32,893 nucleotides of DNA from Flavobacteriales bacterium (GCA_031410075.1 JANNYL010000451.1:1-32893), one strand, 5' to 3'; shown: positions 540-32,276, counted from the first letter of the stretch. Numbers and translations are program-made. Notes: generated from the sequence alone by a model not told the origin.

Positions 540-635
540 CAAACGTATCGGGGTGATCAAGCTCTTTTCCTGACGTTCGTCAGTTCTGCGAAGGACATTG
601 ATCAGGGTTTTCGTTCACTAACCATAAGACCTTTG
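540..635. promoter_or_regulatory. Divergent promoter pair (CDO-like gene / HMA-usp) with two Crp/Fnr-like boxes
   Basis: Minus-strand -7 element TACGTTTG (540-547). Boxes TGAC-GTTC-GTCA (571-582) and GGAC-ATTG-ATCA (593-604). Plus-strand GACCTTTG (628-635). Each box is 23 bp from its -7 element. Confidence 0.7.
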
Positions 636-653
636 GGTCAAATCTGATACACC

Positions 654-929
654 ATGTCCGAGTTGATCTTCCATGTTGACAATTTGAAATGCGAAGGCTG
701 CGCAACCAGTATTCGTAACCGTTTGGCAGAGTTGCCCGGTGTGAGTGGTGTGTTCGTGGATCCGGAAGCCGGCACAGTGAACCTCTCCAATGATGGCGCT
801 TCGTCGCGTGTGGAGATCGCGAGCGCGTTGCTATCGTTGGGCTATCCGGAACATGGAACAGGCGGAATTATCGAGAAGGCGAAGTCGTACGTGAGTTGTG
901 CGGTTGGCCGGATACACGGGGAGGATTGA
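654..929 (+). CDS. Heavy-metal-associated (HMA, CopZ-like) domain protein
   Basis: NLKCEGCA (CxxC) metal loop in a ~70-aa ferredoxin-like fold, plus a C-terminal KAKSYVSCAVG tail. Confidence 0.9.
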   Translation: MSELIFHVDNLKCEGCATSIRNRLAELPGVSGVFVDPEAGTVNLSNDGASSRVEIASALLSLGYPEHGTGGIIEKAKSYVSCAVGRIHGED

Positions 930-1000
930 TCAACGGTTCAGAGGAGGTCACGAACGCAACAACAGATTCACCCACAGCTTAGCACAGTTCACTTGTTCCC

Positions 1001-1810
1001 ATGGCGAATATCCTTATCCCCACAGATTTCAGCGACAATTCGATGCACGCAGCGGAGTATGCTGTGAAGCTCTTCGGTGCGAAAGGCAACTCGTTCGTTC
1101 TCTTGCACACATACATCGATGTGAGTGTGGCAGACCCGGTAATGCCGAGCATGGCGCGCGAAATGATGGTGGTATCGGAAGAAGGTCTGCAGGATTTCAC
1201 AACGAGGCTGAACTCACGCACAGGCGTGGAAGGTGTGAAGCAAGAGGTCCGTTATGGATTTTTGGAATCCGTGGTGAACGAGATCGCCGCAAGTGCGGGA
1301 TGCCAACTTGTTGTGATGGGGAAGCGCGGTAAAGGCGGTTCAGCGTTCTTCGGAAGCAATACGACCAGGTTGATCAACCGCAGCCACGTTCCAGTACTGG
1401 CTGTTCCAGAAACGGCGGCATTGAAAAAGGTGGAACGGATCCTGTTGGCCGATGATCACGATGACATTCTGCCTTCCCAACTGACCATACTGAAACAGAT
1501 AGCACTAGCGAACAATGCAGAAATATTGGTGGCTCATGTAGAGATCGAGGTTGCTGCCACGGCTTCCCATTGGAGTGATGGGGTTTATAAGCTAGCGCTT
1601 GAAGGAACCAAGCACAGTTTTCAGAACGCGCATGGCGAAGATGTGATCAACGGACTGGACAGGATCGCTCGGCACCAGAAGGTGGACATGGTCGCTGTAC
1701 TGCACCGCCACATCGGGTTGATCGGTCGTTTGTTCCACCCGAGCACGGCGAAAGAACTCTCTCGCAGCATCGATCTTCCGTTGCTCGTGATGGAATACAC
1801 GGACAAGTAA
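1001..1810 (+). CDS. Universal stress protein (tandem Usp domains)
   Basis: ILIPTDFSDNS N-terminus, LVVMGKRG...FFGSNT...VPVLAVP, and a second degenerate Usp domain. Confidence 0.93.
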   Translation: MANILIPTDFSDNSMHAAEYAVKLFGAKGNSFVLLHTYIDVSVADPVMPSMAREMMVVSEEGLQDFTTRLNSRTGVEGVKQEVRYGFLESVVNEIAASAGCQLVVMGKRGKGGSAFFGSNTTRLINRSHVPVLAVPETAALKKVERILLADDHDDILPSQLTILKQIALANNAEILVAHVEIEVAATASHWSDGVYKLALEGTKHSFQNAHGEDVINGLDRIARHQKVDMVAVLHRHIGLIGRLFHPSTAKELSRSIDLPLLVMEYTDK

Positions 1811-2669: not shown

Positions 2670-3374
2670 TCAAGGGCACACGGTGGCTTGTGCGGGTACC
2701 GTATCTGGTGGAGGGCTCACCATCGGGATCCCCAGTTCCAAGCCACGCAAGATCATCAATATTCCTAATGCCGATACCACCACTGGAGACATCCTGCGCA
2801 GCAAAGTACGACCGCCACCACCGATCAAGTGACCACTCATTCTGAGAGCGATCAAGGCTGGCCATGTACCGAGCCCGAACAGGGCCATGAACAAAGCACC
2901 TTGTGAAACAGCGCCCATCGCCGTGGCACCCACAGCGGCCGCATACACCATACCGCAAGGAAGCAGGCCGTTCAGAAGACCCGTTGCGAACAGCGCTTCC
3001 GGTTCGGTGCGTTTCAAGTTGCGACCCAACACGCCACGGAAACGAGCGATCATCAGTGATAGATGACCTGTCGGGCTCCAACGTTCCAATAGGCCCGGCA
3101 CCAACACAGAGAGAAGGATCAACGCACCGGCAAGGATCGAAACTGTTTGCTGGAGTCCGACGAGTTGCAAGCCTTTTCCGAACGCACCGAAGGCTGCACC
3201 CAAAAGCGTGTAGGTCGCCAGCCGGCCGCTGTTCAGGAGAAGCGTGCTGGTAAATCGGGATCGCCATCCCGTTCCAGGAGAAGGCACCGCCAATGCGATC
3301 GGCCCACACATCCCCAAGCAATGGCCGCTGCTAGCAAAACCAAGTACCAATGCCGCAGGGATCCACGCCGTCAT
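2670..3374 (-). CDS. Sulfite exporter TauE/SafE (DsbD_2) family membrane protein, cbb3 biogenesis-associated
   Basis: HCLGMCGP and NGLLPCGMVY motifs. Start moved to ATG 3374, which overlaps the fixH stop (ATGA). Confidence 0.9.
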   Translation of the reverse strand: MTAWIPAALVLGFASSGHCLGMCGPIALAVPSPGTGWRSRFTSTLLLNSGRLATYTLLGAAFGAFGKGLQLVGLQQTVSILAGALILLSVLVPGLLERWSPTGHLSLMIARFRGVLGRNLKRTEPEALFATGLLNGLLPCGMVYAAAVGATAMGAVSQGALFMALFGLGTWPALIALRMSGHLIGGGGRTLLRRMSPVVVSALGILMILRGLELGIPMVSPPPDTVPAQATVCP

Positions 3375-3814
3375 CGCACAAAGATCCGTTTTTCGGTCAG
3401 CCTTTCTTCGCCGTCCATCTTCCAATCCAGCCGCATGCGGTACACGCCTTTGATCAAGTCGTGTGTTGCCAAAGCGAACAGACCAGCGCTATCAGCAGAT
3501 ACATCTACAGTGAGATCACCGAGTTCCGTGGAAGGTCGCATCAAGTGCAGCGTACCGGTGATCGGTGCTCTGCTCTTCCTGGTAGGGAATTGGAGTGACA
3601 GGCTGCCGGCGCCTTCCGTAACGACCACCTCCTCCCCGGAGCGCAGCGCGTTGCTCAATTTGTCGATATCGGCCTGGTACGCCAGTTCCTCCTTGTAGTA
3701 GTCTTCCGCAACCAGTGGGGAAGGGTTGTTCAAGGCGCGCATGGCGAACCAGCCCATCATCACCACAAAGGCGATCAGCACAGCAGCGAGCCCGGTTCCC
3801 CAGTTCAGTTTCAT
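3371..3814 (-). CDS. fixH: FixH/CcoH cbb3 oxidase assembly protein
   Basis: MKLNWGTG N-terminal TM segment, LVAEDYYKEELAYQ motif, position directly after ccoG. Confidence 0.88.
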   Translation of the reverse strand: MKLNWGTGLAAVLIAFVVMMGWFAMRALNNPSPLVAEDYYKEELAYQADIDKLSNALRSGEEVVVTEGAGSLSLQFPTRKSRAPITGTLHLMRPSTELGDLTVDVSADSAGLFALATHDLIKGVYRMRLDWKMDGEERLTEKRIFVR

Positions 3815-5238
3815 GATGCCTTGGTAATGGGTCCTACGAACGAAGTACGCACTTGATCGATCAATTTATCCCCGCTGAAGATACCCACATTCAATTCGGT
3901 GGTATAGCCATGCACGTCGGCCTTGTCGAGGATGATGAAAAGCTCTCCTTCGATCAGCTCCGCTTTACCCAATTCGCGTGCAGCCCCTACCAAAGTCACC
4001 TCACCCTTGCTGCCGATCAATTCGAAACGGATCGGCATTTCGCGCGAGGTCTTGTTCACCACTTTGTACGCGTAAATGTTGCTGATGCGGCCATCATCCC
4101 GCCTTTGGAACAAGGTGCCAGGGGTGCGCAGCACGGTGGTTTCCACATCGCTACGCGTAAGGATCAAGAGCAACAGGATGCCCACCAAAGCAGTAAGTAC
4201 AACGCTGTAGCCTTTCATGCGCGGGGTGTATCTCCACGGTTTCTTGTCGGCGATCTCGCGCTCACTGGCGAAACGGATAAGTCCGGTGGGAAGGCCAACG
4301 CCGGTCATCATGTGGTCACAGGCGTCTATGCATGCGGTGCAGTTCACGCATTCCAGCTGGGTGCCGTTCCGGATGTCGATGCCCGTAGGGCACACATGCA
4401 CACAGGCCTTGCAGTCGATGCAGTCACCCTTGCCCACGGCAGCCCGATCCTCGTTCTTCTTGAACAGACCACGCGATTCGCCGCGCATGTGGTCGTACGC
4501 GATCACGGTGCTGTGCCGATCGAGCAGCACGCCTTGTAAGCGGCCATATGGGCAGATCGTGGTGCATACCTGTTCTCGCAAGAATGCGAACACCCCATAG
4601 AACACGCCACTGAAACCAAGGACCGCCACAAAGCCGCTCCAATGCGTATTGGGCGAAACGGTGATGATATCGATCAGCCGGTCCGTTCCGATCAAGTAGG
4701 CGAGGAAGGTATTTCCGATCACGAAGGCCACACCGAAGAAAAGGACGTGTTTCAACGTCTTCTTCCAGATCCGTTCACCGGACCAAGGTCCCTTGTTGAG
4801 CGCTTGTTGTTGCTTCCAGTCCCCTTCCACCCAGTACTCGATGCGACGGTACACCAGTTCCATAAAAATGGTTTGCGGGCAGGCCCAGCCGCAGAACAAT
4901 CGCCCAAAGGCCACAGTGAATAGCGCAACGAAAACAATGAACGTGATGAAGCCGATAACGAAGAGATGGATGTCCTGTGGCCAGAACGTACGACCCAGGA
5001 TAACGAACCGACGGTCGATCACATCCAACTGCAACAACGGCTCGCCTGCAATGCGGATCCAAGGACCCAGCATAAGCATGACTAAGAGCGTATATCCGAA
5101 CAGCTTGCGCCAGTTCCAGAATTTCCCTGAGACTTTCTTCGGATAGATCCAAACGCGCTTCCCATGCTTGTCCACCGTTGCGATGGAGTCACGGAATTGC
5201 TCGTCCCGCTTGGTGATCGCTGGTGGCTTGGGGATCAC
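3811..5238 (-). CDS. ccoG: Cytochrome c oxidase accessory protein CcoG (4Fe-4S membrane protein)
   Basis: GRLFCGWACPQT, CPYGRLQ, CIDCKACVHVCPTGIDIR..QLECVNCTACIDAC; GTG start overlaps the ccoP stop. Confidence 0.95.
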   Translation of the reverse strand: MIPKPPAITKRDEQFRDSIATVDKHGKRVWIYPKKVSGKFWNWRKLFGYTLLVMLMLGPWIRIAGEPLLQLDVIDRRFVILGRTFWPQDIHLFVIGFITFIVFVALFTVAFGRLFCGWACPQTIFMELVYRRIEYWVEGDWKQQQALNKGPWSGERIWKKTLKHVLFFGVAFVIGNTFLAYLIGTDRLIDIITVSPNTHWSGFVAVLGFSGVFYGVFAFLREQVCTTICPYGRLQGVLLDRHSTVIAYDHMRGESRGLFKKNEDRAAVGKGDCIDCKACVHVCPTGIDIRNGTQLECVNCTACIDACDHMMTGVGLPTGLIRFASEREIADKKPWRYTPRMKGYSVVLTALVGILLLLILTRSDVETTVLRTPGTLFQRRDDGRISNIYAYKVVNKTSREMPIRFELIGSKGEVTLVGAARELGKAELIEGELFIILDKADVHGYTTELNVGIFSGDKLIDQVRTSFVGPITKAS

Positions 5239-6383
5239 GGTGCTATGGCAGCGAGCTTGGTACTGTCGCTCTTCACCGCTGTTGTATCAGTAGGTAGAAC
5301 TTCCTCTTTCCAAAGGTCACCCTCGGGTGCTTTGGCGTTCGGTGGGTTGCTTCCCTGAAGGCTGAGGATGTAGCTGGCGAGGTGCTGTATCTCGATCGGT
5401 TTCAGTTGCGTTTTCCAACTGATCATGCCCTTTTCCGGAACGCCGTAGGCGATCGTGCGGAACACGTTCTTGATGCCGCCGCCATGTTTCCAATACGCGT
5501 CGGTGAGGTTAGGGCCAAGACCTTCCTTGCCCTCCAAGCCTGTTCCATGGCAAGCAACACAATACTCCTGGAATTCCCGGTTGCCTGCGGCGATGGAACC
5601 CGCGTCGGTCAACAACGTCACATTATCCTCGTTCACCAGGTTCTTGAACTGCGCTTGATACGCGGCGACATCCGCCTTGGCTTGGGCCATCTCCTGTTTG
5701 TATTCGACATCTTGATCGGGCCAGATGTTGAACACATAATGGTTCGCCATGAAGACGATGCTCCAGAGGATCGTACCGTAGAACAACCACAGCCACCAAG
5801 GCGGCAGTACGTTGTCCAGTTCGCGGATGCCGTCGTAGTTGTGGTCCAACAAAATGTCCGTCTCGCGCTCAACGGGCACACGGTTGGTCAACTTTCTCCA
5901 AACGCGATCTTCCCATGGTTCAACGGCCGGGTCGAAGACCACCACGGGTTCCGGCTTGTTCAGGATCGTTTTGGTGAGGAAGCGCAACAGGTTCATCTGT
6001 GCCACCATCACCACGGCGAGAAAAACGTTCGTTACCACCAGCCACCAGAACAGCGTGGTGGTGGTGAAGTGTTCACCGTTCGCGGACATCGCATTGGCGT
6101 GAACGGCTATGCTGGTCAGCAAGACCATCATGCCGGTGCGCTTGCGTGCTTCCGTCCAGAATTTCCCTGGTGACCCAAGCGTGCGCATGATGCTGCTCAT
6201 GGACATTATCACGATCACTTGGAACACGGCCAAGCCAATGAGCGCAACGTTCACACTCATCGAACCAATTCCTTCTGCGGCTTGGGTGGCCGCGGGCGCC
6301 GTGCCCTGGGCGTTCACCATGACATGCGCCAATAAAACGGCAACTGCCGACCCTGTGATGCGGTGTAGCGTATGGCGCTTCAT
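5235..6383 (-). CDS. ccoP: cbb3-type cytochrome c oxidase subunit III (CcoP), single heme, long N-terminal extension
   Basis: DHNYDGIRELDNVLPPWW motif, one CVACH, GPNLTD, KGMISWK. Confidence 0.93.
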   Translation of the reverse strand: MKRHTLHRITGSAVAVLLAHVMVNAQGTAPAATQAAEGIGSMSVNVALIGLAVFQVIVIMSMSSIMRTLGSPGKFWTEARKRTGMMVLLTSIAVHANAMSANGEHFTTTTLFWWLVVTNVFLAVVMVAQMNLLRFLTKTILNKPEPVVVFDPAVEPWEDRVWRKLTNRVPVERETDILLDHNYDGIRELDNVLPPWWLWLFYGTILWSIVFMANHYVFNIWPDQDVEYKQEMAQAKADVAAYQAQFKNLVNEDNVTLLTDAGSIAAGNREFQEYCVACHGTGLEGKEGLGPNLTDAYWKHGGGIKNVFRTIAYGVPEKGMISWKTQLKPIEIQHLASYILSLQGSNPPNAKAPEGDLWKEEVLPTDTTAVKSDSTKLAAIAP

Positions 6384-6568
6384 AGCTCTTCGTTTCCAGG
6401 TGTGTCGTTCAAAGGCGTTCGGGCCATCTGGTCCAAGTGGCGGTGATCAACGGTAAAGACCCACACGAGCACACCGATGAAGAAGGAGAACAGCAGCACG
6501 AAACCGAGTGTGGGCCAAATGGCCAAGTTGTCGATACCGGTGATGGAGTGTGAGATGAACCACAGCAT
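6380..6568 (-). CDS. ccoQ: cbb3 oxidase small subunit CcoQ
   Basis: 62 aa, one TM helix, ends with MARTPL; lies between ccoNO and ccoP. Confidence 0.85.
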   Translation of the reverse strand: MLWFISHSITGIDNLAIWPTLGFVLLFSFFIGVLVWVFTVDHRHLDQMARTPLNDTPGNEEL

Positions 6569-6576
6569 CGTTCAGG

Positions 6577-8751
6577 TTATTTGGTGGCGGCCGCTGGTGC
6601 GGCTTTGGGTTTGATGTCAGTACCTAGCCGTTGCAGATAGGCGATCATCGCGATGATCTCTTTCTCTTTTTCGATCTCGATGCCGCCTACCTTCAGATCG
6701 TCCGCGATGCCTTGTGCTTGTGCGCTCAGGTTGGCGCTTGCCTGCTGCTCGAAGCCTTCGGGATACGGAACGCCGAGGGTGCGCATGGCCGCGATCTTCA
6801 TCGGTGTGCTGCCCGTATCGATCCATTGTTCGTAGAGGTGGGCATACGGAGGCATGATGCTGCCCTTTACGAATTCACCGGGATTGATCATGTGGTAGAA
6901 ATGCCAACTGTTCTGGTACTTGCCACCTACCCGCAACAGATCCGGCCCTGTGCGTTTGCTACCCCATTGGAACGGATGGTCGTACACGAATTCACCCGCC
7001 TTGCTGTATTCGCCATAGCGTTCGGTCTCGCTGCGGAAGGGGCGCACCATCTGCGAGTGGCAGGTGTAGCAGCCTTCGCGCACATAGATGTCCCGGCCTT
7101 GCAGTTCGAGCGGTGTGTAGGGATGCACGCTCTTGATCGTGGGCACGTTGCTCTGCAACAGGAAAGTCGGCACCAGTTCCACGATACCCCCAATACCCAC
7201 CACCACCAAACTGAACACCAGCATCTGGATGGGTCGGCGTTCGATCCATCGGTGCCAATGAGCACCAACGTGTTCCGGTTCCTTCTCCATCGGCATGGCT
7301 TCAGCATCTTCGTTCGCGATCAGCTTGCCGGCAGCAACGGTCTTCCATACGTTGTACACCATCACGAACACGCCGACGAGGTAGAGCGTACCACCCAAGC
7401 TTCGCAGCCAATAGGCGTATTTGATCTGGATCACGGTATCCAGGAAGTTGGCGTAGGCCAAGTATCCGTCCGGTGTGAACTGCTTCCACATCAGGCTCTG
7501 CGTGAACCCAGCGAAGTACAAGGGGATAGTGTAGAAGATGATGCCGAGCGTGCCGATCCAGAAGTGGAAATTCATCAACCCGCGTGAATGCATCTGCTTG
7601 CCGAACAGGCGCGGGATCAGCCAGTAGATCATACCGAACGTGAGGAAGCCGTTCCAGCCGAGCGCGCCCACATGCACGTGCGCGATCGTCCAGTCGGTGA
7701 AGTGGCTGATGCTGTTGAAGAACTTGGTGCTCAACAACGGGCCTTCCAGCGTGGCCATGCCATAGCACGTGATCGCCACCACATAGAATTTCAGCACCGC
7801 ATCTTCCCGCACGCGGTCCCACGCGCCTCGCAACGTGAGCAACCCGTTGAGCATGCCACCCCAACTGGGTGCGATGAGCATGATGCTGAACACCGTACCC
7901 AGGTTCTGCGCCCAGTCGGGCAATGAGCTGTAGAGCAAGTGGTGCGGACCCGCCCAGATGTAGAGGAAGATGAGCGCCCAGAAGTGGATGATGCTGAGCC
8001 GATAGCTGTACACGGGCCGGTTCGCGGCCTTCGGCAGGAAGTAGTACATCACGCCCAAGTACGGCGTGGTCAGGAAGAACGCCACCGCGTTGTGTCCGTA
8101 CCACCATTGCACCAAGGCATCCTGCACGCCAGCGTAATAACTATAGCTCTTGAAGAGGCTTACCGGCAGCTCCACACTGTTCACGATATGCAGCATGGCT
8201 ACTGTTACCCATGTAGCGATGTAGAACCAGATGGCCACGTACAAATGCCGCTCGCGCCGCTTGATGATGGTGCCCATCAGGTTGATCCCGAACACCACCC
8301 ACGCCAGCGTAATGGCGATATCCTGGGGCCATTCCAGTTCCGCGTACTCCTTGCCGGTGGTAATGCCCAATGGCAGGGTGATCGCCGCGCTCACAATGAT
8401 CATCTGCCAGCTCCAGAAGTGCAAATTGCTGAGCCAATCTTTGAACATGCGCGTCTTCAGCAACCGTTGCGCGCTGTAGTACACACCCGCGAACATGCCG
8501 TTGCCCACGAAGGCGAAAATGACCGCATTGGTATGCAACGGACGAAGCCTGCCGAAGGTGAACCACTGCTGCTCGCTCAACCAGATAAGGGGGCGCACCA
8601 GCCAGTAATACCATACATCGGGACTGGTGCCTTGCACCACCATTTCCAACGCGATGATCAAACCCACCAACATGCCCACCGCACCCCAGAGCACGGTCGC
8701 GAAGAGGAAATTCTTCACGATGCGGTTGTCGTACTGGAAACGTTCCATCAT
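6577..8751 (-). CDS. ccoNO: Fused cbb3 oxidase subunits I/II (CcoN-CcoO)
   Basis: RLRPLHTN, QWWYGHNAV, WAGPHHL, AHVHVGALGW (CcoN), then EGCYTCHSQ...WGSKRTGPDL (CcoO). Likely start ATG 8751 or 8748 (MMERFQYDN); the track's 8874 start overlaps ccoS. Confidence 0.96.
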   Translation of the reverse strand: MMERFQYDNRIVKNFLFATVLWGAVGMLVGLIIALEMVVQGTSPDVWYYWLVRPLIWLSEQQWFTFGRLRPLHTNAVIFAFVGNGMFAGVYYSAQRLLKTRMFKDWLSNLHFWSWQMIIVSAAITLPLGITTGKEYAELEWPQDIAITLAWVVFGINLMGTIIKRRERHLYVAIWFYIATWVTVAMLHIVNSVELPVSLFKSYSYYAGVQDALVQWWYGHNAVAFFLTTPYLGVMYYFLPKAANRPVYSYRLSIIHFWALIFLYIWAGPHHLLYSSLPDWAQNLGTVFSIMLIAPSWGGMLNGLLTLRGAWDRVREDAVLKFYVVAITCYGMATLEGPLLSTKFFNSISHFTDWTIAHVHVGALGWNGFLTFGMIYWLIPRLFGKQMHSRGLMNFHFWIGTLGIIFYTIPLYFAGFTQSLMWKQFTPDGYLAYANFLDTVIQIKYAYWLRSLGGTLYLVGVFVMVYNVWKTVAAGKLIANEDAEAMPMEKEPEHVGAHWHRWIERRPIQMLVFSLVVVGIGGIVELVPTFLLQSNVPTIKSVHPYTPLELQGRDIYVREGCYTCHSQMVRPFRSETERYGEYSKAGEFVYDHPFQWGSKRTGPDLLRVGGKYQNSWHFYHMINPGEFVKGSIMPPYAHLYEQWIDTGSTPMKIAAMRTLGVPYPEGFEQQASANLSAQAQGIADDLKVGGIEIEKEKEIIAMIAYLQRLGTDIKPKAAPAAATK

Positions 8752-8755
8752 GGCC

Positions 8756-8914
8756 TCACGTGGTTGGTGGCTGTATGCTATCGTCTGAAAAAAGGCGGAC
8801 GGCGGGGGATCGGTCATCCTCGTATTGCCCACTGCGTATGGCCCACACAAAGGCCACCAGGAAAATGCCCGCAACGAACGTGCTGGCTGTGATCAATAGA
8901 AAGATGACGCTCAT
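8756..8914 (-). CDS. ccoS: cbb3 oxidase maturation protein CcoS
   Basis: MSVIFLLI...FVWAIRSGQYED..PAVRLF; ATG at 8914. Confidence 0.92.
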   Translation of the reverse strand: MSVIFLLITASTFVAGIFLVAFVWAIRSGQYEDDRSPAVRLFSDDSIQPPTT

Positions 8915-8934: not shown

Positions 8935-8999
8935 CGAAACTGCCGAGCGGCCGGGGCATGAAGCCTGAGGTTGGTCATGCAGAAAGATGACTTTTGTCA
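8935..8999 (-). promoter_or_regulatory. cco operon promoter with tandem Crp/Fnr-like boxes
   Basis: -7-like CAGTTTCG (reverse complement of 8935-8942). Box TGAG-GTTG-GTCA at 8966-8977 (23 bp away) and TGAC-TTTT-GTCA at 8988-8999 (22 bp further). Confidence 0.7.
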
Positions 9000-9120: not shown

Positions 9121-9555
9121 GTGTTTTCCAAAGCCTGCGAGTACGCTATCCGAGCAATGATCTGCTTGGCAGCGTGTTCCGAAAAAGGCGAACGGCTCAC
9201 GCTGACCGAGATCGCATCGAAGACCGATTCGCCCCAGGCATTCACGGCCAAAGTGCTTCAGCAGTTGTCGAAAGCGGGGCTCATCGATTCCATGAAGGGG
9301 CCGAACGGCGGCTTCTCGTTGCCAACGGCCAAAGCACTAAAGGTGAAACTGAGCCACGTGGTAAAGGCCATTGATGGTGATGCCATTTATACCGGCTGCG
9401 GATTGGGGTTGAAGGAGTGTTCCGATAAGCGGCCTTGCCCGTTGCACGATCATTTCCTGCAGGTGCGCAAAGATCTTCGGCGCATGTTGGAGGGCACGAG
9501 TATCGAGGAGTTGAGCCTCGGCCTGAAAGAGGGATCCACCTTCATGCAACGCTGA
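9121..9555 (+). CDS. Rrf2 family transcriptional regulator (putative Fe-S, NsrR/IscR-like)
   Basis: MFSKACEYAIRA, KGPNGGF wing, C-x6-C-x5-C-PLH (CGLGLKECSDKRPCPLH). GTG start; TAGTTTCG -7 element at 9094-9101. Confidence 0.93.
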   Translation: MFSKACEYAIRAMICLAACSEKGERLTLTEIASKTDSPQAFTAKVLQQLSKAGLIDSMKGPNGGFSLPTAKALKVKLSHVVKAIDGDAIYTGCGLGLKECSDKRPCPLHDHFLQVRKDLRRMLEGTSIEELSLGLKEGSTFMQR

Positions 9556-10275: not shown

Positions 10276-10322
10276 CGGACAATATTGTCCGTTAATAACC
10301 GCATCGAACATGATGATCGTCA
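10276..10322 (-). promoter_or_regulatory. Fasciclin promoter: perfect 16-bp palindrome over the -7 position, plus a Crp/Fnr-like box
   Basis: CGGACAATATTGTCCG (10276-10291) and TGAT-GATC-GTCA (10311-10322). Confidence 0.7.
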
Positions 10323-10367: not shown

Positions 10368-11135
10368 TCAGAGGTCCTTTCGATCGAAAGCGCGCAAAGA
10401 CCACCACGCTGGAACGATCACCCAAAGCATCAACGCACCCGCAGCCATCATGATCCCGCCAACGCTGCCGAGGTATTGTTTGTACACCGCTCCGCTGTAC
10501 CCCATCATGGCGGCCAGATCCACTTTCAACATCACCATGATGCGCGCCAGATCGATGGGGTTAAGGGCCGCGATGGGAACTACGAACGGTTCGATCGGCC
10601 TGTCGCCGAAGGCCAGCATTGCCCACAAGAGGAGCGCGTCGTATACGATCACCATCACTGCCCAAACAGCGAGACCAAAACCCACCGCACGGGCTTTATC
10701 ACGATTCTTCATGGCGATGAGCGCACCGATGGAAACGAAGCTCAGTGTGAGCATCGCGGCGCAGAGCATCAACACGCCACCGATGTCGAACGGGGCGAAC
10801 ACCGCGATCGGTAGGTACATGCCCACGACCAACGCCACGAGCATCGCGATGCCCAATGCCAGGAGCTGACCCAGGAGAATGGAACGGCGACGGAGCGGCT
10901 GAACGGCGAGCAGTTCGGTGAAGTCGGACAGGTTGTGGAAGTACGTAACGGTGAACACCACGGCGATCAGCGGCACCAAGGCGAGCACCACTTGTTCCAG
11001 TGCGAGCAGGCCTTTGATGGCATCACCTTCCAGCACGAAAAGCCCCCACGAGATGGCCAGCAATAGCAGCGTATACACCAGCATGAAGCGGTTGCGCGCC
11101 AGATCGATCAACGTGTATTTGCACACCTTCCACAT
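10368..11135 (-). CDS. nosY: NosY ABC transporter permease
   Basis: Multi-TM protein with ELLAVQP, NPIDLAR and FDRKDL. ATG 11135 overlaps the nosF TAA (TAATG). Confidence 0.9.
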   Translation of the reverse strand: MWKVCKYTLIDLARNRFMLVYTLLLLAISWGLFVLEGDAIKGLLALEQVVLALVPLIAVVFTVTYFHNLSDFTELLAVQPLRRRSILLGQLLALGIAMLVALVVGMYLPIAVFAPFDIGGVLMLCAAMLTLSFVSIGALIAMKNRDKARAVGFGLAVWAVMVIVYDALLLWAMLAFGDRPIEPFVVPIAALNPIDLARIMVMLKVDLAAMMGYSGAVYKQYLGSVGGIMMAAGALMLWVIVPAWWSLRAFDRKDL

Positions 11136-11857
11136 TACGCGACCGGTGTTCGAAGCAACGTCGCGATGCCTTGTGAAAGTCGATCCGTGCCCGTGGACCC
11201 GAGTATCTCGGAAGGGGGAAGGATGAAGCGCAACTGACCTTCGCTGAGGTAGGCCACACGATCGGCAACGTGTCCCACCTCGTCCATGAGGTGGGAGGTG
11301 ATCAGCACAGTGCATCCCCGTTCGCGGGCGCTGCGTACCTCGGCGATCAAGCGCGCTGACGATCCCGGGTCGAGGCCTGCAGTGGGTTCATCCAACACGA
11401 GCACTTGCGGCTTTGTGCGGAACGCGAGCACCGCGCTCACCTTTTGTCGTGTGCCACCGGAGAGCGCACCCATGCGTTTATCGAGTTGGGTATCGAGGCC
11501 GAGTTCATGCACCAAGGTGTCGTCGAGCTGGTCATCAGAAAGCCCCCGGACATCACGCATCATATCCAGCAGATCACAGATCCGCAACTGCTCGGGATAC
11601 CTTGCCACTTGTGCCATATAGCCGATGCGCTCGCGACTTGCCGGATCGCCGCCTGCGCGCATGCCGAGCACATCGATGTGCCCGCGTGTAGCGCGCACCA
11701 AGCCCAGCAGGATCTTTATCAGCGTGCTTTTCCCCGAACCGTTGGGGCCGATCACCGCAACGGTTTCGCCAGCGTGGAACGAAGCGTTCACACCTTGCAA
11801 TGCCCACAGCTTCCCGTAGCGCTTGGCAAGGTCATGAATGGCTATCGTCTCCATCAT
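11135..11857 (-). CDS. nosF: NosF ABC transporter ATP-binding protein
   Basis: Walker A GPNGSGKS, LSGG signature, LDEP; located between nosD and nosY. Confidence 0.92.
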   Translation of the reverse strand: MMETIAIHDLAKRYGKLWALQGVNASFHAGETVAVIGPNGSGKSTLIKILLGLVRATRGHIDVLGMRAGGDPASRERIGYMAQVARYPEQLRICDLLDMMRDVRGLSDDQLDDTLVHELGLDTQLDKRMGALSGGTRQKVSAVLAFRTKPQVLVLDEPTAGLDPGSSARLIAEVRSARERGCTVLITSHLMDEVGHVADRVAYLSEGQLRFILPPSEILGSTGTDRLSQGIATLLRTPVA

Positions 11858-13091
11858 TAGGTTGGTGCATCAGGGGATGTTCGTCCACCAACGATACGGA
11901 TGAAACCGATGGCAACAAGCGCTCAACAACATCGAGCAATTGCACCAACAAGCTGCGAGACAGGATCACTGCGTACGGCGTGCGTTCCAACAGGGATGCG
12001 AACAAACTCAATGGCCGGTGAGGGACATCACCGGTGCCATTGCGGTCCAGGTCATATCCGCGATAGCGGTCCCAGTAGTTGCCGTCCACGGTGTTCGCGG
12101 CCATGTCGCCGTTGGTGGTCACATCGAAGGTGTTGCCCGTGAAGCTGTTCCCTTGGAACGTGGTGCTCATGGTGTTCGCGAACATACGCAAGGCCCAGCC
12201 GTTGCTGATGAACGTGTTATCAGTGGCCACCACCCGATTGCATCCGTCCATGAAGAGGCCCGAGGTGTTATCTCGGAATTCGTTCCGCTCCATCGTGACA
12301 TCGTTGATCTCTTTCAGTAACAGTCCATATGCGCTCGCTCCGCGGTTGCGCAGGAAACGGTTGTCGCTCATCTCCACATCGTGGCTGAACATCACGGCCA
12401 CGCCCGCACCGTTATCGCGGAACTCATTGTGCGTGTAGTGATCGTGATGGCTGAACATGAAATGCAGCCCGTAACGCGCGTTGTCTTCACTGGTGTTCCC
12501 GTCCGCGCGGCTGTCCTGCACGAACTCGAAATAGATGCCATCACGGTGACCTGAAACATGGTTGTTGCGCACCGTATCGCGCGAGCACTTCCACAGATGG
12601 ATACCGTTGGCCTTGCGATCCTCCTCCTCATCGATACGGCCGAACACTTCATTCCCCTCGATCAGTGAACTGGTCACACCCGCGAGATGGATGCCGAAGA
12701 AACAATCGATCACGCGCACGTTGCGCACAACGAGGAATTGGCATTCATCCGCACGGATACCCGCATTATCGTTCATATTGCTCACCTGTGTTCCGCGTAC
12801 TTCGATCCCTTCGATCGTTACATGCGATGCGCTTACGATGATCACATCTCCCGCGCCTTCTCCATCGATCAATGGGCGGTCGATCCCGGACAGAACGATC
12901 GATCTATCGAGGTGGATCACACCTTCGCGGTAGGTCCCTGCGTGCACGTGCACCGTGTCGCCTGCTCCGGCGGCCGCAATGGCATCGCGCAGCGGATGAG
13001 CGTTCTGCGCTGGCCGCACCTCCCACGTTCGGGCTTGGGTGACTTGCCACATGCCGGCAACAACGAACAACGTGGTCGCGAGCCGTAGCAT
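11832..13091 (-). CDS. nosD: NosD nitrous oxide reductase maturation protein
   Basis: Beta-helix repeats, HRDGIYFEF, RYGLHFMFS, GNYWDRY.GYDLDRNG.GD. Confidence 0.95.
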   Translation of the reverse strand: MLRLATTLFVVAGMWQVTQARTWEVRPAQNAHPLRDAIAAAGAGDTVHVHAGTYREGVIHLDRSIVLSGIDRPLIDGEGAGDVIIVSASHVTIEGIEVRGTQVSNMNDNAGIRADECQFLVVRNVRVIDCFFGIHLAGVTSSLIEGNEVFGRIDEEEDRKANGIHLWKCSRDTVRNNHVSGHRDGIYFEFVQDSRADGNTSEDNARYGLHFMFSHHDHYTHNEFRDNGAGVAVMFSHDVEMSDNRFLRNRGASAYGLLLKEINDVTMERNEFRDNTSGLFMDGCNRVVATDNTFISNGWALRMFANTMSTTFQGNSFTGNTFDVTTNGDMAANTVDGNYWDRYRGYDLDRNGTGDVPHRPLSLFASLLERTPYAVILSRSLLVQLLDVVERLLPSVSSVSLVDEHPLMHQPNDGDDSHS

Positions 13092-13092
13092 C

Positions 13093-14222: not shown

Positions 14223-14229
14223 ACCTTGG

Positions 14230-20729: not shown

Positions 20730-20772
20730 TGACGAAGGTCACCAAAGAGGTGGCTCATATGCACCACCTTCG
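20730..20772 (+). promoter_or_regulatory. Crp/Fnr-like box and -7 element
   Basis: TGAC-GAAG-GTCA (20730-20741), 23-bp gap, CACCTTCG (20765-20772). Confidence 0.65.
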
Positions 20773-20777: not shown

Positions 20778-21959
20778 GTGAAAGGTCGCGGTATCATTCT
20801 TCGTGTGCTGTTTTCGGCGGTCTCCGGTATGTTCTGCTTTGCGCTTGTGCTTGGTCAGAACTTGGTACCGAACGGAGGCTTCGAGACCTTCAGTTCATTG
20901 CCCACCGGTTATGCCCAATTGTGCAAGGCCACGGGCTGGACCTCTGCGAGCAATGCGTGTACGATCGCACCCGGTTGCGGGCATCCCGACTACATGCACA
21001 CAGCGGGTGGCGCAGGCGTGCAAGCACCGAACACCACCTTTGGCACCACTATGCCGCACATCGGTAATGCGCTGATCGGCTTCACTCCATGGTATTTGGT
21101 GGGAGTCACCAACTTCCGCGAGTACCCGCGCATTACGCTCTCGTCCCCCTTTGTGCCGGGCCAATCGTATACCGTCTCATTCTGGACCACGAACGGCACC
21201 AACCCCTATTCCGGCTGGGGCATCAATAACCTGGGCGTTGCCTTCACCATAGCACCACTGAGCCAAAGCTGCGGTGCTCCGCTCACCGGGGTGATCCCGC
21301 AGATCGAGATCACTACCGTTGTCTTCAGTTCCACCTGGCAGCTGCACTCGTTCACCTTCACGCCTACGCAGCCGTTCCAGTACATGACCATTGGCAACTT
21401 CCACAATGATGCCGGCACCACTGCCGCGCAGATGTCGCCTACCGGCGGAATGGGAGCGTACTATTTTTTGGATGATGTGTCCGTGTCGCTCACCGTTCCG
21501 TTGCCGATCGTGCTGCTCGCGTTCGATGCGGTATGTGATGGAAGTTCGGTACGCGTGCAATGGAGTACGGCCTCGGAATCGAACAACGCCTATTTCACAG
21601 TGGAACGAAGTGCTGATGCCGAGAATTGGTTGCCCATCGGCACAGTTTCCGGTGCAGGCAATTCGCAACAACCAATACAGTACGAGTTCCAGGATGCCGA
21701 AGCCCTGACCGGTCCCGGTTACTATCGATTGAAACAGACGGACTACGACGGTGCATACGACTATTCTCCGGTGGTGAGCGCGACCGCATGCCGCGACAAA
21801 GAGGTACTGCAACGATGGATGGTTGATGCCAGCGGACGGATCTGCAGCACGTGGCCCGTTGCGGCTGGATCGATGGGCACGGGCATCTATCTCGTTCGCA
21901 CGGAGTACACCGATGGCTCGGTAGCGACCGCCAAGGTTGCAGTGCTACAACCCTATTGA
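20778..21959 (+). CDS. Secreted Bacteroidota protein with a QNLVPNGGFE beta-sandwich domain, a PLPI-type Ig-like domain and a shortened T9SS CTD
   Basis: Signal peptide VLG-Q; PLPIVLLAFDA...WSTASESNN..F.VERS..YYRLKQTDYDG; GIYLV..K.AV tail; GTG start. Confidence 0.82.
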   Translation: MKGRGIILRVLFSAVSGMFCFALVLGQNLVPNGGFETFSSLPTGYAQLCKATGWTSASNACTIAPGCGHPDYMHTAGGAGVQAPNTTFGTTMPHIGNALIGFTPWYLVGVTNFREYPRITLSSPFVPGQSYTVSFWTTNGTNPYSGWGINNLGVAFTIAPLSQSCGAPLTGVIPQIEITTVVFSSTWQLHSFTFTPTQPFQYMTIGNFHNDAGTTAAQMSPTGGMGAYYFLDDVSVSLTVPLPIVLLAFDAVCDGSSVRVQWSTASESNNAYFTVERSADAENWLPIGTVSGAGNSQQPIQYEFQDAEALTGPGYYRLKQTDYDGAYDYSPVVSATACRDKEVLQRWMVDASGRICSTWPVAAGSMGTGIYLVRTEYTDGSVATAKVAVLQPY

Positions 21960-22509: not shown

Positions 22510-22552
22510 TGATGACCGTCAGTCGACGATCCGGGATCCGTGGATAGTTTGC
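22510..22552 (+). promoter_or_regulatory. Crp/Fnr-like box and -7 element of the multicopper oxidase gene
   Basis: TGAT-GACC-GTCA (22510-22521), 23-bp gap, TAGTTTGC (22545-22552). Confidence 0.65.
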
Positions 22553-24253: not shown

Positions 24254-24296
24254 TGATATTGATCATGTTCGCACGGTCGTGGTTCAAGAACTTTGC
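24254..24296 (+). promoter_or_regulatory. Crp/Fnr-like box and -7 element
   Basis: TGAT-ATTG-ATCA (24254-24265), 23-bp gap, AACTTTGC (24289-24296). Confidence 0.65.
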
Positions 24297-26037: not shown

Positions 26038-26080
26038 TGACGATCGACAGTTTTGCGGCGATGCGGTGCAGGTAGCTTCA
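26038..26080 (+). promoter_or_regulatory. ppsA promoter (Crp/Fnr-like box with one mismatch; probably leaderless)
   Basis: TGAC-GATC-GACA (26038-26049), 23-bp gap, TAGCTTCA (26073-26080), ATG at 26085. Confidence 0.55.
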
Positions 26081-26084: not shown

Positions 26085-28481
26085 ATGGAACCGAACATCA
26101 AATGGCTGCGCGATGTGCGCAACACGGACGTCACATCCGTTGGCGGTAAAAACGCATCGCTCGGTGAGCTGATCGCCATACTCGGCAGCGAGGGGATCGA
26201 AGTGCCTGTGGGCTTCGCGATCACCGCACAAGCGTACTGGGCCTTTCTGGACTCCAACGGGATCAGGAAGCCCATCGAAGCGTGCATGGCGCGAATGGAC
26301 CGGAAGGACTTGAGCAACTTGAAAGCGGTTGCTGACGATTCGCGGGCGTTGATCCTTGCGGCCCAATGGCCGGTGGACCTAGAGCAGGAGATCCGGGCAG
26401 CATATCGCGTGTTGGCAAACACGGGCATCGCCTCGGTTGCCATGCGCAGCAGCGCCACCGCCGAGGACCTGCCCACGGCGAGTTTCGCCGGGCGCCATGA
26501 GTCGTTCTTGAACATCCAGAGCGAGGAGGCGCTGCTCGAAGCGTGCAAGCGCTGCTATGCGTCACTCTTCAGCGAGCGCGCCATCAAGTACCGGCAGGAC
26601 ATGGGCTTCCCGGACATGAAGGTGGCGCTGTCCATCGGTGTGCAACACATGGTCCGTTCGGACACCGGTGGTGCTGGCGTGATCTTCACCTTGGAACCTG
26701 AGAGCGGTTTCCGCAACGTGGTGCATATCGCGGCCAATTGGGGCCTGGGCGAGAACGTGGTGCAAGGCGCGGTGGAACCGGACGAGTACCAGGTCTTCAA
26801 ACCCACACTCCGCGAAGGCAAGCGCGCCATACTGCAACGTCGCCTCGGCGCGAAGCAGAAGACGATGGTGCTGGCCCCTGCGGGCAACGAACAGCCGGGT
26901 TCCACCACGCTGAATCTGGACACGCCCCAGGAGCAACGCGGCCGCTTCGTTCTGAGCGATGCGGAAGTGGAACAACTCGCGCGTTGGGCAGTGATCATCG
27001 AAGACCACTACCGCATGCCCATGGACATCGAGTGGGCCAAGGATGGCGAGACCGGTCGCTTGTTCATCGTGCAGGCGCGGCCCGAAACGGTACACTCGGC
27101 CAGGGATCCCTTCCAGTTGAAGGAATACGAGTTGAAGAGCAAGGGCACCGTGCTGGTGACAGGCAGTGCCGTGGGAAGCAAGATCGCGGCAGGTCGTGTT
27201 CGCAAGTTGGATTCACCGGCGCAAGCGGATCAACTGCTCGATGGCGAAGTGCTCGTCACCGACATCACGAACCCGGACTGGGATCCCGTGCTAAAGCGCG
27301 CCTCGGCGATCGTCACCAACAAGGGCGGCCGCACCAGCCATGCGGCGATCGTGGCGCGGGAGATGGGCACCGTGGCCGTTGTGGGCGCATTGAACGCGAC
27401 CGAGGTGCTGAAGGATGGACAACTAGTCACAGTTTCCTGCGCGGAAGGCCGGACGGGAAGGATCTATGACGGCCAACTCGATTGGACGGAGAAGCGGATC
27501 GATCTGAAATCCGTGCAACGGCCACGTACCGATGCGATGCTCATTCTCGCGGATCCGGAGAAGGCTTTCCGGTATTCATTCTACCCGAACCGTGGGGTGG
27601 GCCTGATGCGTCTGGAATTCGTGATCAACAACACCATCCGCGTGCACCCCATGGCGCTGGTGAAATTCGATGAGCTGACCGATGCCAAGGCGAAAGCGGA
27701 GATCGAACTGTTGACGAAGCACCACCCCGACAAACGCCGCTACTTCATTGAACACTTGGCTGAAGCTGTGGCCACCATCGCGGCGGCCTTCCACCCGCAC
27801 GACGTGATCGTGCGCATGAGCGACTTCAAGACCAATGAGTACGCGAGCCTGCTCGGGGGCAAGCAGTTCGAACCGGAGGAGGAGAACCCGATGATCGGTT
27901 TCCGTGGTGCATCGCGCTACTACAACGAACGCTACCGCGAGGGCTTCCGCCTAGAGTGTGCCGCCATGAAGATGGTGCGCGAGGAGATGGGCCTCACCAA
28001 TGTGAAGCTGATGATCCCCTTCTGCCGCACGGTGGGCGAGGCCAAGCGCGTGGTGGAATTGATGGCGGAGTTCGGCCTGAAGCGCGGGGAGAACGGCCTG
28101 CAACTGTACATGATGACCGAGATCCCGAGCAACGTGATCCGCGCTAAAGACTTCGCGAAGTACTTCGATGGCTTCAGCATCGGTAGCAATGACCTGACGC
28201 AATTGACGCTCGGCATCGATCGCGACTCGGCGATCATCAGCGACCTGTTCAGCGAGAGCGATGCTGCCGTGATCGACATGATCACCTCCGTGATCGCTTC
28301 CGCCCACGCCACGGGCACACGTATCGGTCTCTGCGGCCAGGCGCCGAGCGACGACCCCGCCTTCGCGAAGTTCCTCGTGGATCAGGGGATCGATAGCATC
28401 TCCTTCAACCCCGATGCGTTGATCAACGGGATCAACAACATCCGCGAAGCCGAGCGTACCCTAAAACTGGCCACCAACTGA
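26085..28481 (+). CDS. ppsA: Phosphoenolpyruvate synthase (pyruvate, water dikinase)
   Basis: VGGKNASLGE, RSSATAEDLP.ASFAG, DIEWAKDG, GGRTSHAAIVARE (phospho-His), GFSIGSNDLTQL, CGQAPSD. Confidence 0.96.
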   Translation: MEPNIKWLRDVRNTDVTSVGGKNASLGELIAILGSEGIEVPVGFAITAQAYWAFLDSNGIRKPIEACMARMDRKDLSNLKAVADDSRALILAAQWPVDLEQEIRAAYRVLANTGIASVAMRSSATAEDLPTASFAGRHESFLNIQSEEALLEACKRCYASLFSERAIKYRQDMGFPDMKVALSIGVQHMVRSDTGGAGVIFTLEPESGFRNVVHIAANWGLGENVVQGAVEPDEYQVFKPTLREGKRAILQRRLGAKQKTMVLAPAGNEQPGSTTLNLDTPQEQRGRFVLSDAEVEQLARWAVIIEDHYRMPMDIEWAKDGETGRLFIVQARPETVHSARDPFQLKEYELKSKGTVLVTGSAVGSKIAAGRVRKLDSPAQADQLLDGEVLVTDITNPDWDPVLKRASAIVTNKGGRTSHAAIVAREMGTVAVVGALNATEVLKDGQLVTVSCAEGRTGRIYDGQLDWTEKRIDLKSVQRPRTDAMLILADPEKAFRYSFYPNRGVGLMRLEFVINNTIRVHPMALVKFDELTDAKAKAEIELLTKHHPDKRRYFIEHLAEAVATIAAAFHPHDVIVRMSDFKTNEYASLLGGKQFEPEEENPMIGFRGASRYYNERYREGFRLECAAMKMVREEMGLTNVKLMIPFCRTVGEAKRVVELMAEFGLKRGENGLQLYMMTEIPSNVIRAKDFAKYFDGFSIGSNDLTQLTLGIDRDSAIISDLFSESDAAVIDMITSVIASAHATGTRIGLCGQAPSDDPAFAKFLVDQGIDSISFNPDALINGINNIREAERTLKLATN

Positions 28482-31552: not shown

Positions 31553-31556
31553 GCGG

Positions 31557-32126
31557 TCAGGCTTTTCGACGCACCACTTCCACAGGGATCTTGCTGAGCT
31601 TGGAGTAGAGCCGACTGCGTCCCCGCAAGGGCCACCAATCGTACAGGTACAATTGCATCGGCCGCCACATGGCCACCCAACCCGCAATTGTCAGGCTCTC
31701 TCGCAGGATCTTGAACAGCGTGCCTTCGCGGTCAGCCAGGAAATAGCTGCTCGTGATGAGACAGGTCGCTAGGAATGCCAGGCCGATGATGAGGCTTGTT
31801 CGGGCATGTTTCATCAGCTGCCGGAATTCCATATTGATCAACTGCCCACGGTACGCGAAGTAGTGGTGCACGGCTTCGCGGATCGTGGCGGTCGGATCCT
31901 CTGCGGGCCATTCGATCAAATGAACGTGCAAGGTGACCGGCGTGGCCAGCGGGTACTCGCGCATCCAACTCACGATGAACTCCTCCGCATCGTGGTCCAG
32001 ATCCTTTTCATGGAACGGTGCCGGATCCATGGAATTGAACAGGGCGGCCACATTGCGCAGTTCCAACTCAACCCGCTGTTTATGCAAGTGACGGCCTGAA
32101 CCTTCCTTGAGCCGTTGTGCGGTCAT
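31557..32126 (-). CDS. Conserved hypothetical membrane protein
   Basis: LFNSMDPAPFHEKDLD..AEEFI, two C-terminal TM segments, GWVAMWRP..LYDWWP; likely ATG 32126. Confidence 0.8.
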   Translation of the reverse strand: MTAQRLKEGSGRHLHKQRVELELRNVAALFNSMDPAPFHEKDLDHDAEEFIVSWMREYPLATPVTLHVHLIEWPAEDPTATIREAVHHYFAYRGQLINMEFRQLMKHARTSLIIGLAFLATCLITSSYFLADREGTLFKILRESLTIAGWVAMWRPMQLYLYDWWPLRGRSRLYSKLSKIPVEVVRRKA

Positions 32127-32211
32127 ATGGTGCAAAGATCGCTCTCCCTCGTGGTGTTCGTTCCTCGAGGATCTCCTTTTCGAAGCCTATCGAGCAACAG
32201 AATGTCATCAT

Positions 32212-32276
32212 TGAGAAAGATCAGGTACTTTCTTGACATGGATCAGCGATGTGGTTTTGCGGTTGGATTTGTTTCG
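32212..32276 (+). promoter_or_regulatory. hsp20 promoter with tandem Crp/Fnr-like boxes
   Basis: TGAG-AAAG-ATCA (32212-32223) and TGAC-ATGG-ATCA (32234-32245), 22 bp apart; TTGTTTCG (32269-32276) after a 23-bp gap. Confidence 0.68.

Follow-up and report, generated by a model that had tools for sequence, protein, structure and literature searches.

A probable low-oxygen FNR/FixK-type class II regulon with tandem boxes and a candidate receiver-fused regulator in a Flavobacteriales genome

Genes of the window and the proposed box

The window analyzed here, a complete contig of 32,893 nt (C451) from a Flavobacteriales bacterium (GCA_031410075.1 JANNYL010000451.1:1-32893), carries genes for a cbb3 oxidase, a nos cluster, a multicopper oxidase (MCO), a phosphoenolpyruvate synthase-type gene (ppsA), hsp20 and several secreted or membrane proteins, placed by Pfam and, for ccoS, by NCBIfam (Table 1). 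A sequence-only reading of this DNA had proposed that a palindrome, TGAY-N4-RTCA, lies exactly 23 nt upstream of the -7 element at 11 promoters and is bound by one Crp/Fnr-type activator encoded elsewhere. On following up this proposal in the whole genome (G000; 4.41 Mb, 747 contigs, 55.6% G+C) and in relatives, we conclude that the window probably belongs to a low-oxygen regulon of the FNR/FixK class II type, in which boxes occur in tandem and the regulator is probably a receiver fusion. Gene calls in G000 were crude (longest open reading frames, 92% coverage), and the intergenic box counts given below are therefore underestimates.

Table 1. Genes, boxes, -7 octamers and palindromes of the window
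Feature	Position	Strand	Details
CDO-like cupin gene (cysteine-dioxygenase family)	2-526	-	PF05995, E 2.6e-12
CDO-like promoter, -7 element	540-547	-	TACGTTTG; gap 23
Exact box, divergent CDO-like/HMA intergenic region	571-582		TGACGTTCGTCA; proximal box of the CDO-like promoter; at HMA either proximal (with octamer 606-613) or distal (-63.5)
One-mismatch box, HMA side	593-604	+	GGACATTGATCA; 22 bp from box 571; octamer GACCTTTG at 628-635
HMA protein, Usp protein and glyoxalase genes	after the CDO-like gene		Pfam; HMA ATG at 654
cbb3 oxidase set (DsbD_2, FixH, FixG, ccoP, ccoQ, fused ccoNO)	2670-8751	-	Pfam; ccoNO ATG at 8751
ccoS	8756-8914		52 aa; ATG 8914-8912; TIGR00847, 47.8 bits (cut-off 28.35)
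Exact box over the ccoS start codon	8905-8916		TG ATG AGC GTC A
ccoS-ccoNO promoter, -7 element	8935-8942	-	CAGTTTCG; gap 23
ccoS-ccoNO promoter, proximal one-mismatch box	8966-8977	-	TGACCAACCTCA; predicted centre ~-41.5
ccoS-ccoNO promoter, distal exact box	8988-8999	-	TGACAAAAGTCA; predicted centre ~-63.5
Rrf2-family regulator gene	9121-9555		Pfam; divergent from ccoS
Fasciclin lipoprotein gene	ATG 10253		start re-read; signal peptide
Fasciclin promoter, exact box	10311-10322	-	octamer CAATATTG at 10280-10287
nosYFDL, family-less gene, nosZ preceded by c-type cytochrome	10368-16726	-	cytochrome c start 16726 (re-read; signal peptide)
Two exact nos boxes, overlapping divergent promoters	16810-16855		34 bp apart; dyad axis 16832/16833
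Box 16844 (cytochrome c-nosZ), -7 element	16813-16820	-	GATATTTG
Box 16810 (421-aa membrane protein), -7 element	16845-16852		GACGTTTG
Second palindrome, spacer between the nos boxes	16823-16838		CGGACGGTTTTGTCCG (CGGAC-N6-GTCCG)
Exact box ahead of 393-aa secreted protein	20730-20741	+	TGACGAAGGTCA; octamer CACCTTCG at 20765-20772
MCO promoter, exact box	22510-22521	+	octamer TAGTTTGC at 22545-22552
MCO gene with type IX secretion system (T9SS) tail	start 22574		true start (MKLTSLF...); signal peptide
Exact box ahead of 134-aa protein	24254-24265	+	octamer AACTTTGC at 24289-24296; protein start 24321
ppsA promoter, one-mismatch box	26038-26049	+	TGACGATCGACA; octamer TAGCTTCA at 26073-26080
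ppsA	26085-28481		ATG 26085
AI-2E transporter, P-type ATPase and hsp20 genes			Pfam; hsp20 ATG 32303
hsp20 promoter, tandem pair	32212-32245	+	distal one-mismatch TGAGAAAGATCA (32212); proximal exact TGACATGGATCA (32234)
hsp20 promoter, octamer	32269-32276	+	TTGTTTCG

The box recurs at a fixed distance from a relaxed -7 element

All 11 box starts, 11 octamers and 11 gaps of 23 nt were present in the window where the sequence-only reading had placed them, and eight of the 11 boxes agree exactly with TGAY-N4-RTCA, whereas those at the HMA, ccoS (minus strand) and ppsA promoters carry one mismatch each. The claim that the motif is commoner than in shuffled DNA also stood: exact boxes number 14 in the window, whereas 100 shuffles gave 2.95 on average (standard deviation 1.78, maximum 9), and these are 14 of the 328 exact boxes of G000 in 0.75% of its bases. 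Two of the 14 had been absent from the earlier list, namely the distal partner of the ccoS box (8988) and the box at the ccoS start codon (8905); the latter is most simply a coding by-product because it recurs in relatives that share the first ccoS codons.

A spacing peak at 23 had been set beforehand as the test, and it appeared in a genome-wide histogram free of octamer preselection (all 651 oriented hits in G000, gaps 0 to 59). Octamers resembling TAnnTTTG in at least five of six positions occurred 18 times at gap 23 and 0-6 times, mostly 0-3, at each other gap, and the looser pattern ....TT[CT]G occurred 27 times at gap 23 compared to a mean of 6.2 (maximum 11) elsewhere. A column profile built without any preset pattern from 196 oriented flanks of 99 intergenic boxes had its peaks with A at offset 24, T at 27-28 and G at 30, equivalent to nAnnTTnG at gap 23; the -7 element is thus a relaxed TAnnTTTG, with A at position 2, TT at positions 5-6, as first described for the window octamers, and G at position 8. 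A chance origin of the boxes and their spacing is excluded. One-mismatch boxes were not used to enlarge the regulon.

A transcription start site study of Flavobacterium psychrophilum places the sigma-A -7 box at -12 to -5 and includes TAnnTTGY as a variant (PMC9723704), a form that the octamers of the MCO and 134-aa protein promoters fit. With the octamer at these positions, the 23-nt gap sets the box at -47 to -36, centered on -41.5 relative to a predicted transcription start site (TSS), which supports the class II arrangement suggested earlier. The octamer lies 5-40 nt ahead of the start codon at most sites, and no -33 TTTG was found after the box in a column profile of 16 aligned promoters. 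We conclude that the boxes and -7 elements very probably form a Crp/Fnr-type class II regulon.

Tandem boxes at the cco and hsp20 promoters

Three box pairs in the window are spaced by 22 bp (571/593, 8966/8988 and 32212/32234), a layer missing from the sequence-only reading, with predicted centers at -41.5 and -63.5. Two of the degenerate boxes of that reading are halves of such tandem pairs and not lone sites. The cco promoter runs from a distal exact box through 10-11 nt, a proximal box, 23 nt and the -7 element to the ccoS ATG, and the distal box was present in 26 of 27 loci, the exception being L053, where only 160 nt upstream of ccoNO were available. A proximal partner with 0-1 mismatch stood at 22 bp in 21 of these 26 loci and an exact one at 23 bp in three more, while of the remaining two loci one had a partner with two mismatches and the other (L073) none; the tandem architecture is kept in 24 of the 26, including 10 other families of the class. 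For hsp20, an exact box within 170 nt upstream occurred in 10 of 28 relative loci, all with a closer match than the rest (the top ten, 45-65% identity); exact tandem pairs were present at three (G012, G033 and G032), and none of the other 18 loci (40-51% identity) carried a box. Both the box and its geometry recur at cco, hsp20 and ppsA in other families too.

The same periodicity emerged from 80 loci around orthologues of the candidate regulator described below (mostly Bacteroidota, with a few record titles naming other phyla). There, pairs of exact boxes peaked at 22 bp (10 pairs, compared to at most three at any other distance), and TTTG peaked both at gap 23 (25 occurrences) and at gap 45, the sum of 23 and 22 (28 occurrences), against ~2-3 elsewhere.

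Overlapping divergent promoters at nos

The two nos boxes drive, by prediction, the cytochrome c-nosZ genes on one side and a 421-aa membrane protein on the other, and each -7 element sits within the box of the opposite promoter. This paired form was found in nine relative loci from eight genomes (L017, L019, L023, L025, L032, L036, L041, L044 and, as a near-pair, L018), six of which have both octamers, and the nos-side box with a TTTG-type -7 element at gap 22-23 was present in 15 of 17 aligned genus relatives. The second palindrome in the spacer is also kept: CGGAY-N6-GTCCG (GGGAT in G017) occurred in 11 of 18 aligned genus sequences with a variable center, and CGGAC-N6-GTCCG was found again around the fasciclin octamer (10276-10291) and at G000:C472:982-997. 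A second regulator, linked to nos, probably uses CGGAY-N6-GTCCG as its operator.

Boxes at the remaining promoters

An exact box followed at gap 23 by a TAnnnTTG-type octamer precedes the CDO-like orthologue in all eight island relatives, and the CDO-like promoter probably drives an operon of the CDO-like gene, a FixL-like kinase, a hybrid of receiver domain (REC) and Crp-type output, and TauE. On the divergent side, HMA may be served by a promoter with either the octamer at 606-613 or that at 628-635; an HMA orthologue was found in one relative (G001), and the geometry of the single exact box there agrees with the former instead of the latter. The fasciclin box was present in all eight genus relatives, once with one mismatch, and four of the eight have the -7 element at gap 45, not 23. 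In one subclade of relatives (G014, G004, G009 and G011; L209-L214 and L207-L208) the fasciclin promoter has a TGAYAAGAATCA-type box at gap 45 (TGACAACAATCA in G009), and the proximal position is taken by TGC-N6-GCA-like sequences instead, for example TGCGAAGGAGCA, to which another Crp paralogue may bind.

For MCO, an exact box at gap 23 was found in both islands that have the gene. No orthologues of the genes behind the 20730 and 24254 boxes were present in the fetched islands, and these two promoters are read from the sequence of the window. The ppsA ATG follows its octamer by 4 nt, so the predicted mRNA is nearly leaderless; an identical box with a TAG[CT]TTCA octamer and a diverged spacer was found in G020, G016 and G003:C35, a half-site with the octamer in G017, and an exact box with a one-mismatch partner 22 bp away in G033. 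G000 has two ppsA paralogues that are 52% identical, the box-bearing island copy and one at C432:7227-9395, which resembles the 50-52%-identical copy of most genus relatives; no gap-23 promoter was found upstream of the C432-like copy at the seven loci examined.

Regulon content

About 20-25 promoters in G000 have an exact box at gap 23. The box-bearing genes encode the cbb3 oxidase with ccoS, ccoG and ccoH, a CcoI-type ATPase, nos functions, c-type cytochromes, Usp proteins, Hsp20, the second ppsA, copper proteins and secreted proteins; those outside the window comprise the CcoI-type ATPase, two Usp proteins, a rhodanese, an MBL-rhodanese protein, a Haem_bd protein, a dihaem-type cytochrome c, a 1-Cys peroxiredoxin, a DUF1508 protein and a large T9SS Kelch protein. 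This content is that of a classic FNR/FixK-type low-oxygen regulon.

Weighing the promoter geometry

Several observations weigh against a simple class II scheme. Housekeeping TAnnTTTG is weak in G000 (32 forward versus 19 reverse occurrences in 897 upstream regions), so that the -12 to -5 placement is borrowed from another genus, and one-mismatch boxes as a class showed no gap-23 peak, either genome-wide or in intergenic DNA, so that the three degenerate boxes depend on comparative evidence. Pairs of an exact and a one-mismatch box at 22 bp number only four in G000 compared to ~1-4 at other distances, which is not significant by itself; the tandem claim therefore draws on the cco loci of relatives and the 80 regulator loci. 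The fasciclin octamer CAATATTG is also the center of another palindrome (10276-10291), coding DNA contains five of the window's 14 boxes (4665, 7422, 8905, 13997 and 25578), about the number expected by chance, and since each nos box covers the -7 element of the other promoter, simple simultaneous activation of both is impossible.

Two metatranscriptome runs (X1 and X2) contain 0.07 and 0.05 of the sampled words, and their contigs, which come from relatives mostly 90-95% alike, may include DNA and give no starts, strands or levels, with uncovered stretches being uninformative. Contig ends from relatives at 8922 (predicted cco TSS near 8930), 10260 (near fasciclin, from two studies) and 656/658 fall 8-18 nt inside the predicted transcripts, at most a weak hint in support of the predicted starts, and one relative's contig covers 16650-16855, past the predicted nos TSS.

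The coding boxes and the nos overlaps, where a box covers a -7 element as a repressor would, are also what one would expect if the boxes were repressor operators or a compositional or chance pattern without a regulatory role. We consider this highly improbable, because a single-nucleotide spacing peak, the missing -33 element, the enrichment and the conservation across families despite diverged spacers do not fit chance, and a repressor has no need of a fixed 23-nt offset upstream of the -7 element.

A receiver-Crp hybrid is the favored regulator

As the sequence-only reading had stated, no Crp/Fnr-type regulator is encoded in the window; the best candidate lies on the neighboring contig C534 (16300-17361), beyond window position 1, with its end ~1.2 kb and its start ~2.3 kb out. 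The encoded protein of 353 aa combines Response_reg, cNMP_binding and HTH_Crp_2 domains and is one of 11 cNMP-domain proteins in G000, among which no other member of its clade was found. Its gene is preceded by that of a PAS-HisKA-HATPase_c kinase and lies near a Usp gene with a box of its own. In L228, 98.6% identical to the start of the window, the C534 end (18395) and window position 1 are ~190 nt apart, and from this adjacency we infer a single gene row of box 571, the CDO-like gene, kinase, REC-Crp hybrid and TauE, an order that suggests autoregulation of the regulator operon.

Of 24 genus genomes, 23 carry a full-length orthologue of the hybrid, as do 10 of 16 other families, and in 13 genomes (G003, G015, G024, G008, G001, G018, G011, G004, G014, G009, G027, G036 and G030) the hybrid gene shares a contig with ccoNO or nosZ at a distance of 7-25 kb. 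The hybrid stop codon is directly followed by a box in four other families, represented by G027 (where a tandem pair precedes a CcoI-type ATPase gene), G033 and G030 (ahead of Usp) and G034. Around the hybrid orthologues, the 80 loci contain 189 exact boxes compared to 35 (maximum 47) in shuffles, a five-fold excess, and 72 of the 80 have at least one. The recognition helix of the hybrid, TATESLIR (ExxIR), is shared by stand-alone homologues beside cco or nos in relatives; five of these (in G030-G033 and G035) have an FNR-like N-terminal Cys motif of the CxxC type, and two of the genomes, G032 and G035, have boxes and the stand-alone homologue without the hybrid.

The kinase points to oxygen as a possible input. 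Among solved structures its PAS domain best matched the FixL haem-PAS (E 5e-15), followed by a multi-sensor histidine kinase (7.4e-11) and then DosP/EcDOS, and it has a His aligned in the RSRH/SKRH column, which we take to be the haem ligand. Against the NCBIfam models the proteins scored below cut-off: 101 bits versus 850 for the kinase (FixL), and 80.5 of 300 and 83.9 of 228 bits for the hybrid (FixK and Fnr, respectively), whose N-terminus is a Response_reg domain in place of an FNR Cys cluster. The CDO-like enzyme, which would consume oxygen beside an oxygen-sensor-like kinase, may be part of the sensing circuit.

Three features of this assignment tell against it. FixL Arg220 aligns with a Leu in the kinase, and haem and oxygen chemistry may therefore differ; the recognition helix is ExxIR, not the canonical ExxSR with which FNR recognizes DNA; and the linkage of hybrid and boxes is guilt by association among related genomes that are not independent. 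On balance, the sequence features make it likely that the REC-Crp hybrid under the FixL-like kinase is the regulator.

The idea of a Crp/Fnr-type activator held up, that of just one activator less clearly: G000 encodes four small (~190-aa) stand-alone Crp paralogues with an ExxSR helix (on C622, C720, C136 and C603), three of them with an exact box no more than 25 nt after their own stop codon (C603, 8261; C720, 679; C136, 2749). A regulator next to a box is therefore not unique to the hybrid, and the boxes could be bound mainly by the small paralogues, with several overlapping regulons sharing one box type and the hybrid controlling other genes or a subset; FNR/ANR, DNR and NnrR of proteobacteria have overlapping regulons on one box type. 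At C603 the box is followed at gap 23 by an octamer and then an SRPBCC gene, at C720 likewise by an octamer and a DinB-family gene, and at C136 a SnoaL-family gene follows the box, where no gap-23 -7 element was found. The outer boxes at these sites (TGATCCAG[GA]TCA) look distinct from those of the hypoxia set (TGAC[GA]nnCGTCA). It is the hybrid, however, that clusters with cco and nos in 13 genomes and has boxes around it in 72 of 80 loci, and the hybrid-less G032 and G035 have boxes with a stand-alone homologue of the hybrid's own clade, not evidently of the small-paralogue type. A phmmer search of 1.5-kb flanks found no Crp-like open reading frame in the nos, cco and hsp20 loci of relatives, homologous either to the small G000 paralogues or to the hybrid; wider linkage or conservation of the small ones was not searched. 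We regard binding mainly by the small paralogues as unlikely and retain the hybrid as the favored binder.

A different doubt concerns the signal, which could be a nitrogen oxide (NO or N2O) or the general redox or energy state instead of oxygen, following a DNR/NnrR-like logic. The island does contain a nos cluster together with an Rrf2-family regulator, the nos promoter has its second conserved palindrome, and haem-PAS domains can bind NO and CO. Most targets, however, are of the oxygen type, cco boxes occur in six genomes without a nosZ match (G025, G028, G032, G033, G034 and G035), and the best solved matches of the kinase PAS are the oxygen sensors FixL and, after one multi-sensor kinase, DosP, making a signal other than oxygen quite improbable.

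Proposed mechanism and relation to known systems

In the scheme that we favor, low oxygen would act through the kinase to yield the phosphorylated hybrid, which would bind TGAY-N4-RTCA, the predicted site of a dimeric Crp/Fnr-family activator, and promote transcription, including that of its own operon via box 571. The box stands exactly 23 nt upstream of a weak -7 element (nAnnTT[T/C]G), at a predicted -41.5 in place of the -33 element, so that RNA polymerase would need the activator, as in class II promoters, and at several promoters a second box stands 22 bp further upstream, at a predicted -63.5. Motif, spacing, conservation, regulon content and the association of the regulator gene with boxes are shown by the sequences; start positions, the positive sign of regulation, the binding protein and the oxygen signal are the parts of this scheme that we infer. 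In its most extended form, which we put forward tentatively and hold to be possible, a FixJ-FixK fusion and a FixL-like haem-PAS kinase, co-transcribed with a CDO-like cupin, would be a self-activating master low-oxygen activator across much of Bacteroidota, acting from -41.5/-63.5 boxes at -7-only sigma-A promoters, with the nos promoters firing alternately and a second regulator at CGGAY-N6-GTCCG.

The known kind to which this system belongs is the FNR/FixK-type class II regulon; what is new is its setting in Bacteroidota promoters, the tandem boxes and the probable receiver-fused regulator. Escherichia coli FNR at class II promoters binds TTGAT-N4-ATCAA centered on -41.5, and shares with the present system the TGAT/ATCA half-sites, the 4-bp spacer, the predicted center near -41.5 where an upstream promoter element would otherwise be, and a regulon for anaerobic or micro-oxic respiration. 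Here, however, the outer T/A of TTGAT is unconserved, position 4 has C as often as T, the promoter has a Bacteroidota -7 box instead of a sigma-70 -10, and the candidate regulator is a hybrid with a receiver domain, no Fe-S Cys cluster, and ExxIR instead of ExxSR.

The rhizobial cascade consists of the haem-PAS kinase FixL, FixJ (REC with a LuxR-type HTH) and a separately encoded FixK. It resembles our system in the FixL-matching PAS kinase, the two-component step, the (candidate) Crp/Fnr-type binder, the TGA-N6-TCA-like box and targets such as fixNOQP-type cbb3 genes, fixGHIS-type assembly genes and nos, but in the candidate regulator REC and Crp-type output are joined in one polypeptide, with neither a LuxR HTH nor a separate fixK step. 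For nos, FixK2 is reported to activate nosRZDYFLX (PMC5582078).

The octamers and short leaders recall the sigma-A promoters of F. psychrophilum as mapped in PMC9723704, although those combine a -33 TTTG with -7 TAnnTTTG, whereas here the -7 element is weak and the box occupies the -33 place.

Within the phylum, Porphyromonas HcpR is a Crp/Fnr-family regulator. The carbon regulator of the Bacteroides MalR/BT4338 type belongs to the same family (PMC8510549); both share superfamily and phylum with our candidate and differ from it in signals, motifs and targets. That study reports no evidence that CRP/FNR controls denitrification in its metagenome-assembled genomes of Flavobacteriales, Ignavibacteria and Saprospiraceae, and in PMC3590769 Bacteroidetes are listed among phyla. 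The stress responses for which PMC9723704 cites its SI Appendix D14 include hypoxia and may be relevant here. Full-text searches, whose coverage excluded subscription journals, returned no literature on this regulon or the hybrid regulator.

How oxygen governs respiration and N2O reduction is well documented in proteobacteria, whereas little turned up for Bacteroidota, although clade II nosZ is carried by members of this phylum, among them the present genomes. A box with single-base geometry offers a direct means of predicting low-oxygen genes in Bacteroidota genomes, and the system, if real, would clearly exemplify activation of the class II type at the sigma-A promoter peculiar to Bacteroidota, with a candidate regulator that merges two steps of FixLJ-FixK into one protein. 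Because the hybrid occurs in cultured genera (Hymenobacter, Spirosoma, Pedobacter and Pseudoflavitalea), the model can be tested at the bench.

Other genes of the island

Several secreted or membrane proteins of the window are family-less. Searches of Pfam and NCBIfam returned no match for 16882-18147, 20778-21959, 31557-32135 and 2238-2633, and for 18222-19370 and 19697-20584 only a sub-threshold Por_Secre_tail match. Two labels given earlier were not borne out: the supposed NnrS-like protein is the matchless 16882-18147, and the supposed TerB-like protein matched TerB with an E of only 0.0078, below the model's cut-off.

The Rrf2-family protein scored under the equivalog cut-offs of IscR, NsrR and RirA, and its orthologue was found among the fetched islands only in G008, beside the nos-linked membrane protein. 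We dropped it as a binder of the box, since Crp/Fnr is indicated by both the kind of box and the class II geometry, and Rrf2 was present in only one of 11 fetched island pieces from 10 relatives.

The nearest relative has on G003:C35 (L044, L083, L176 and L197) a second, partly degraded copy of island genes, in which nosZ and ppsA each match in two separate pieces and 4-8 in-frame stops interrupt the matches to ccoNO and hsp20; the copy stems from a second strain, from a duplication or from mis-assembly.

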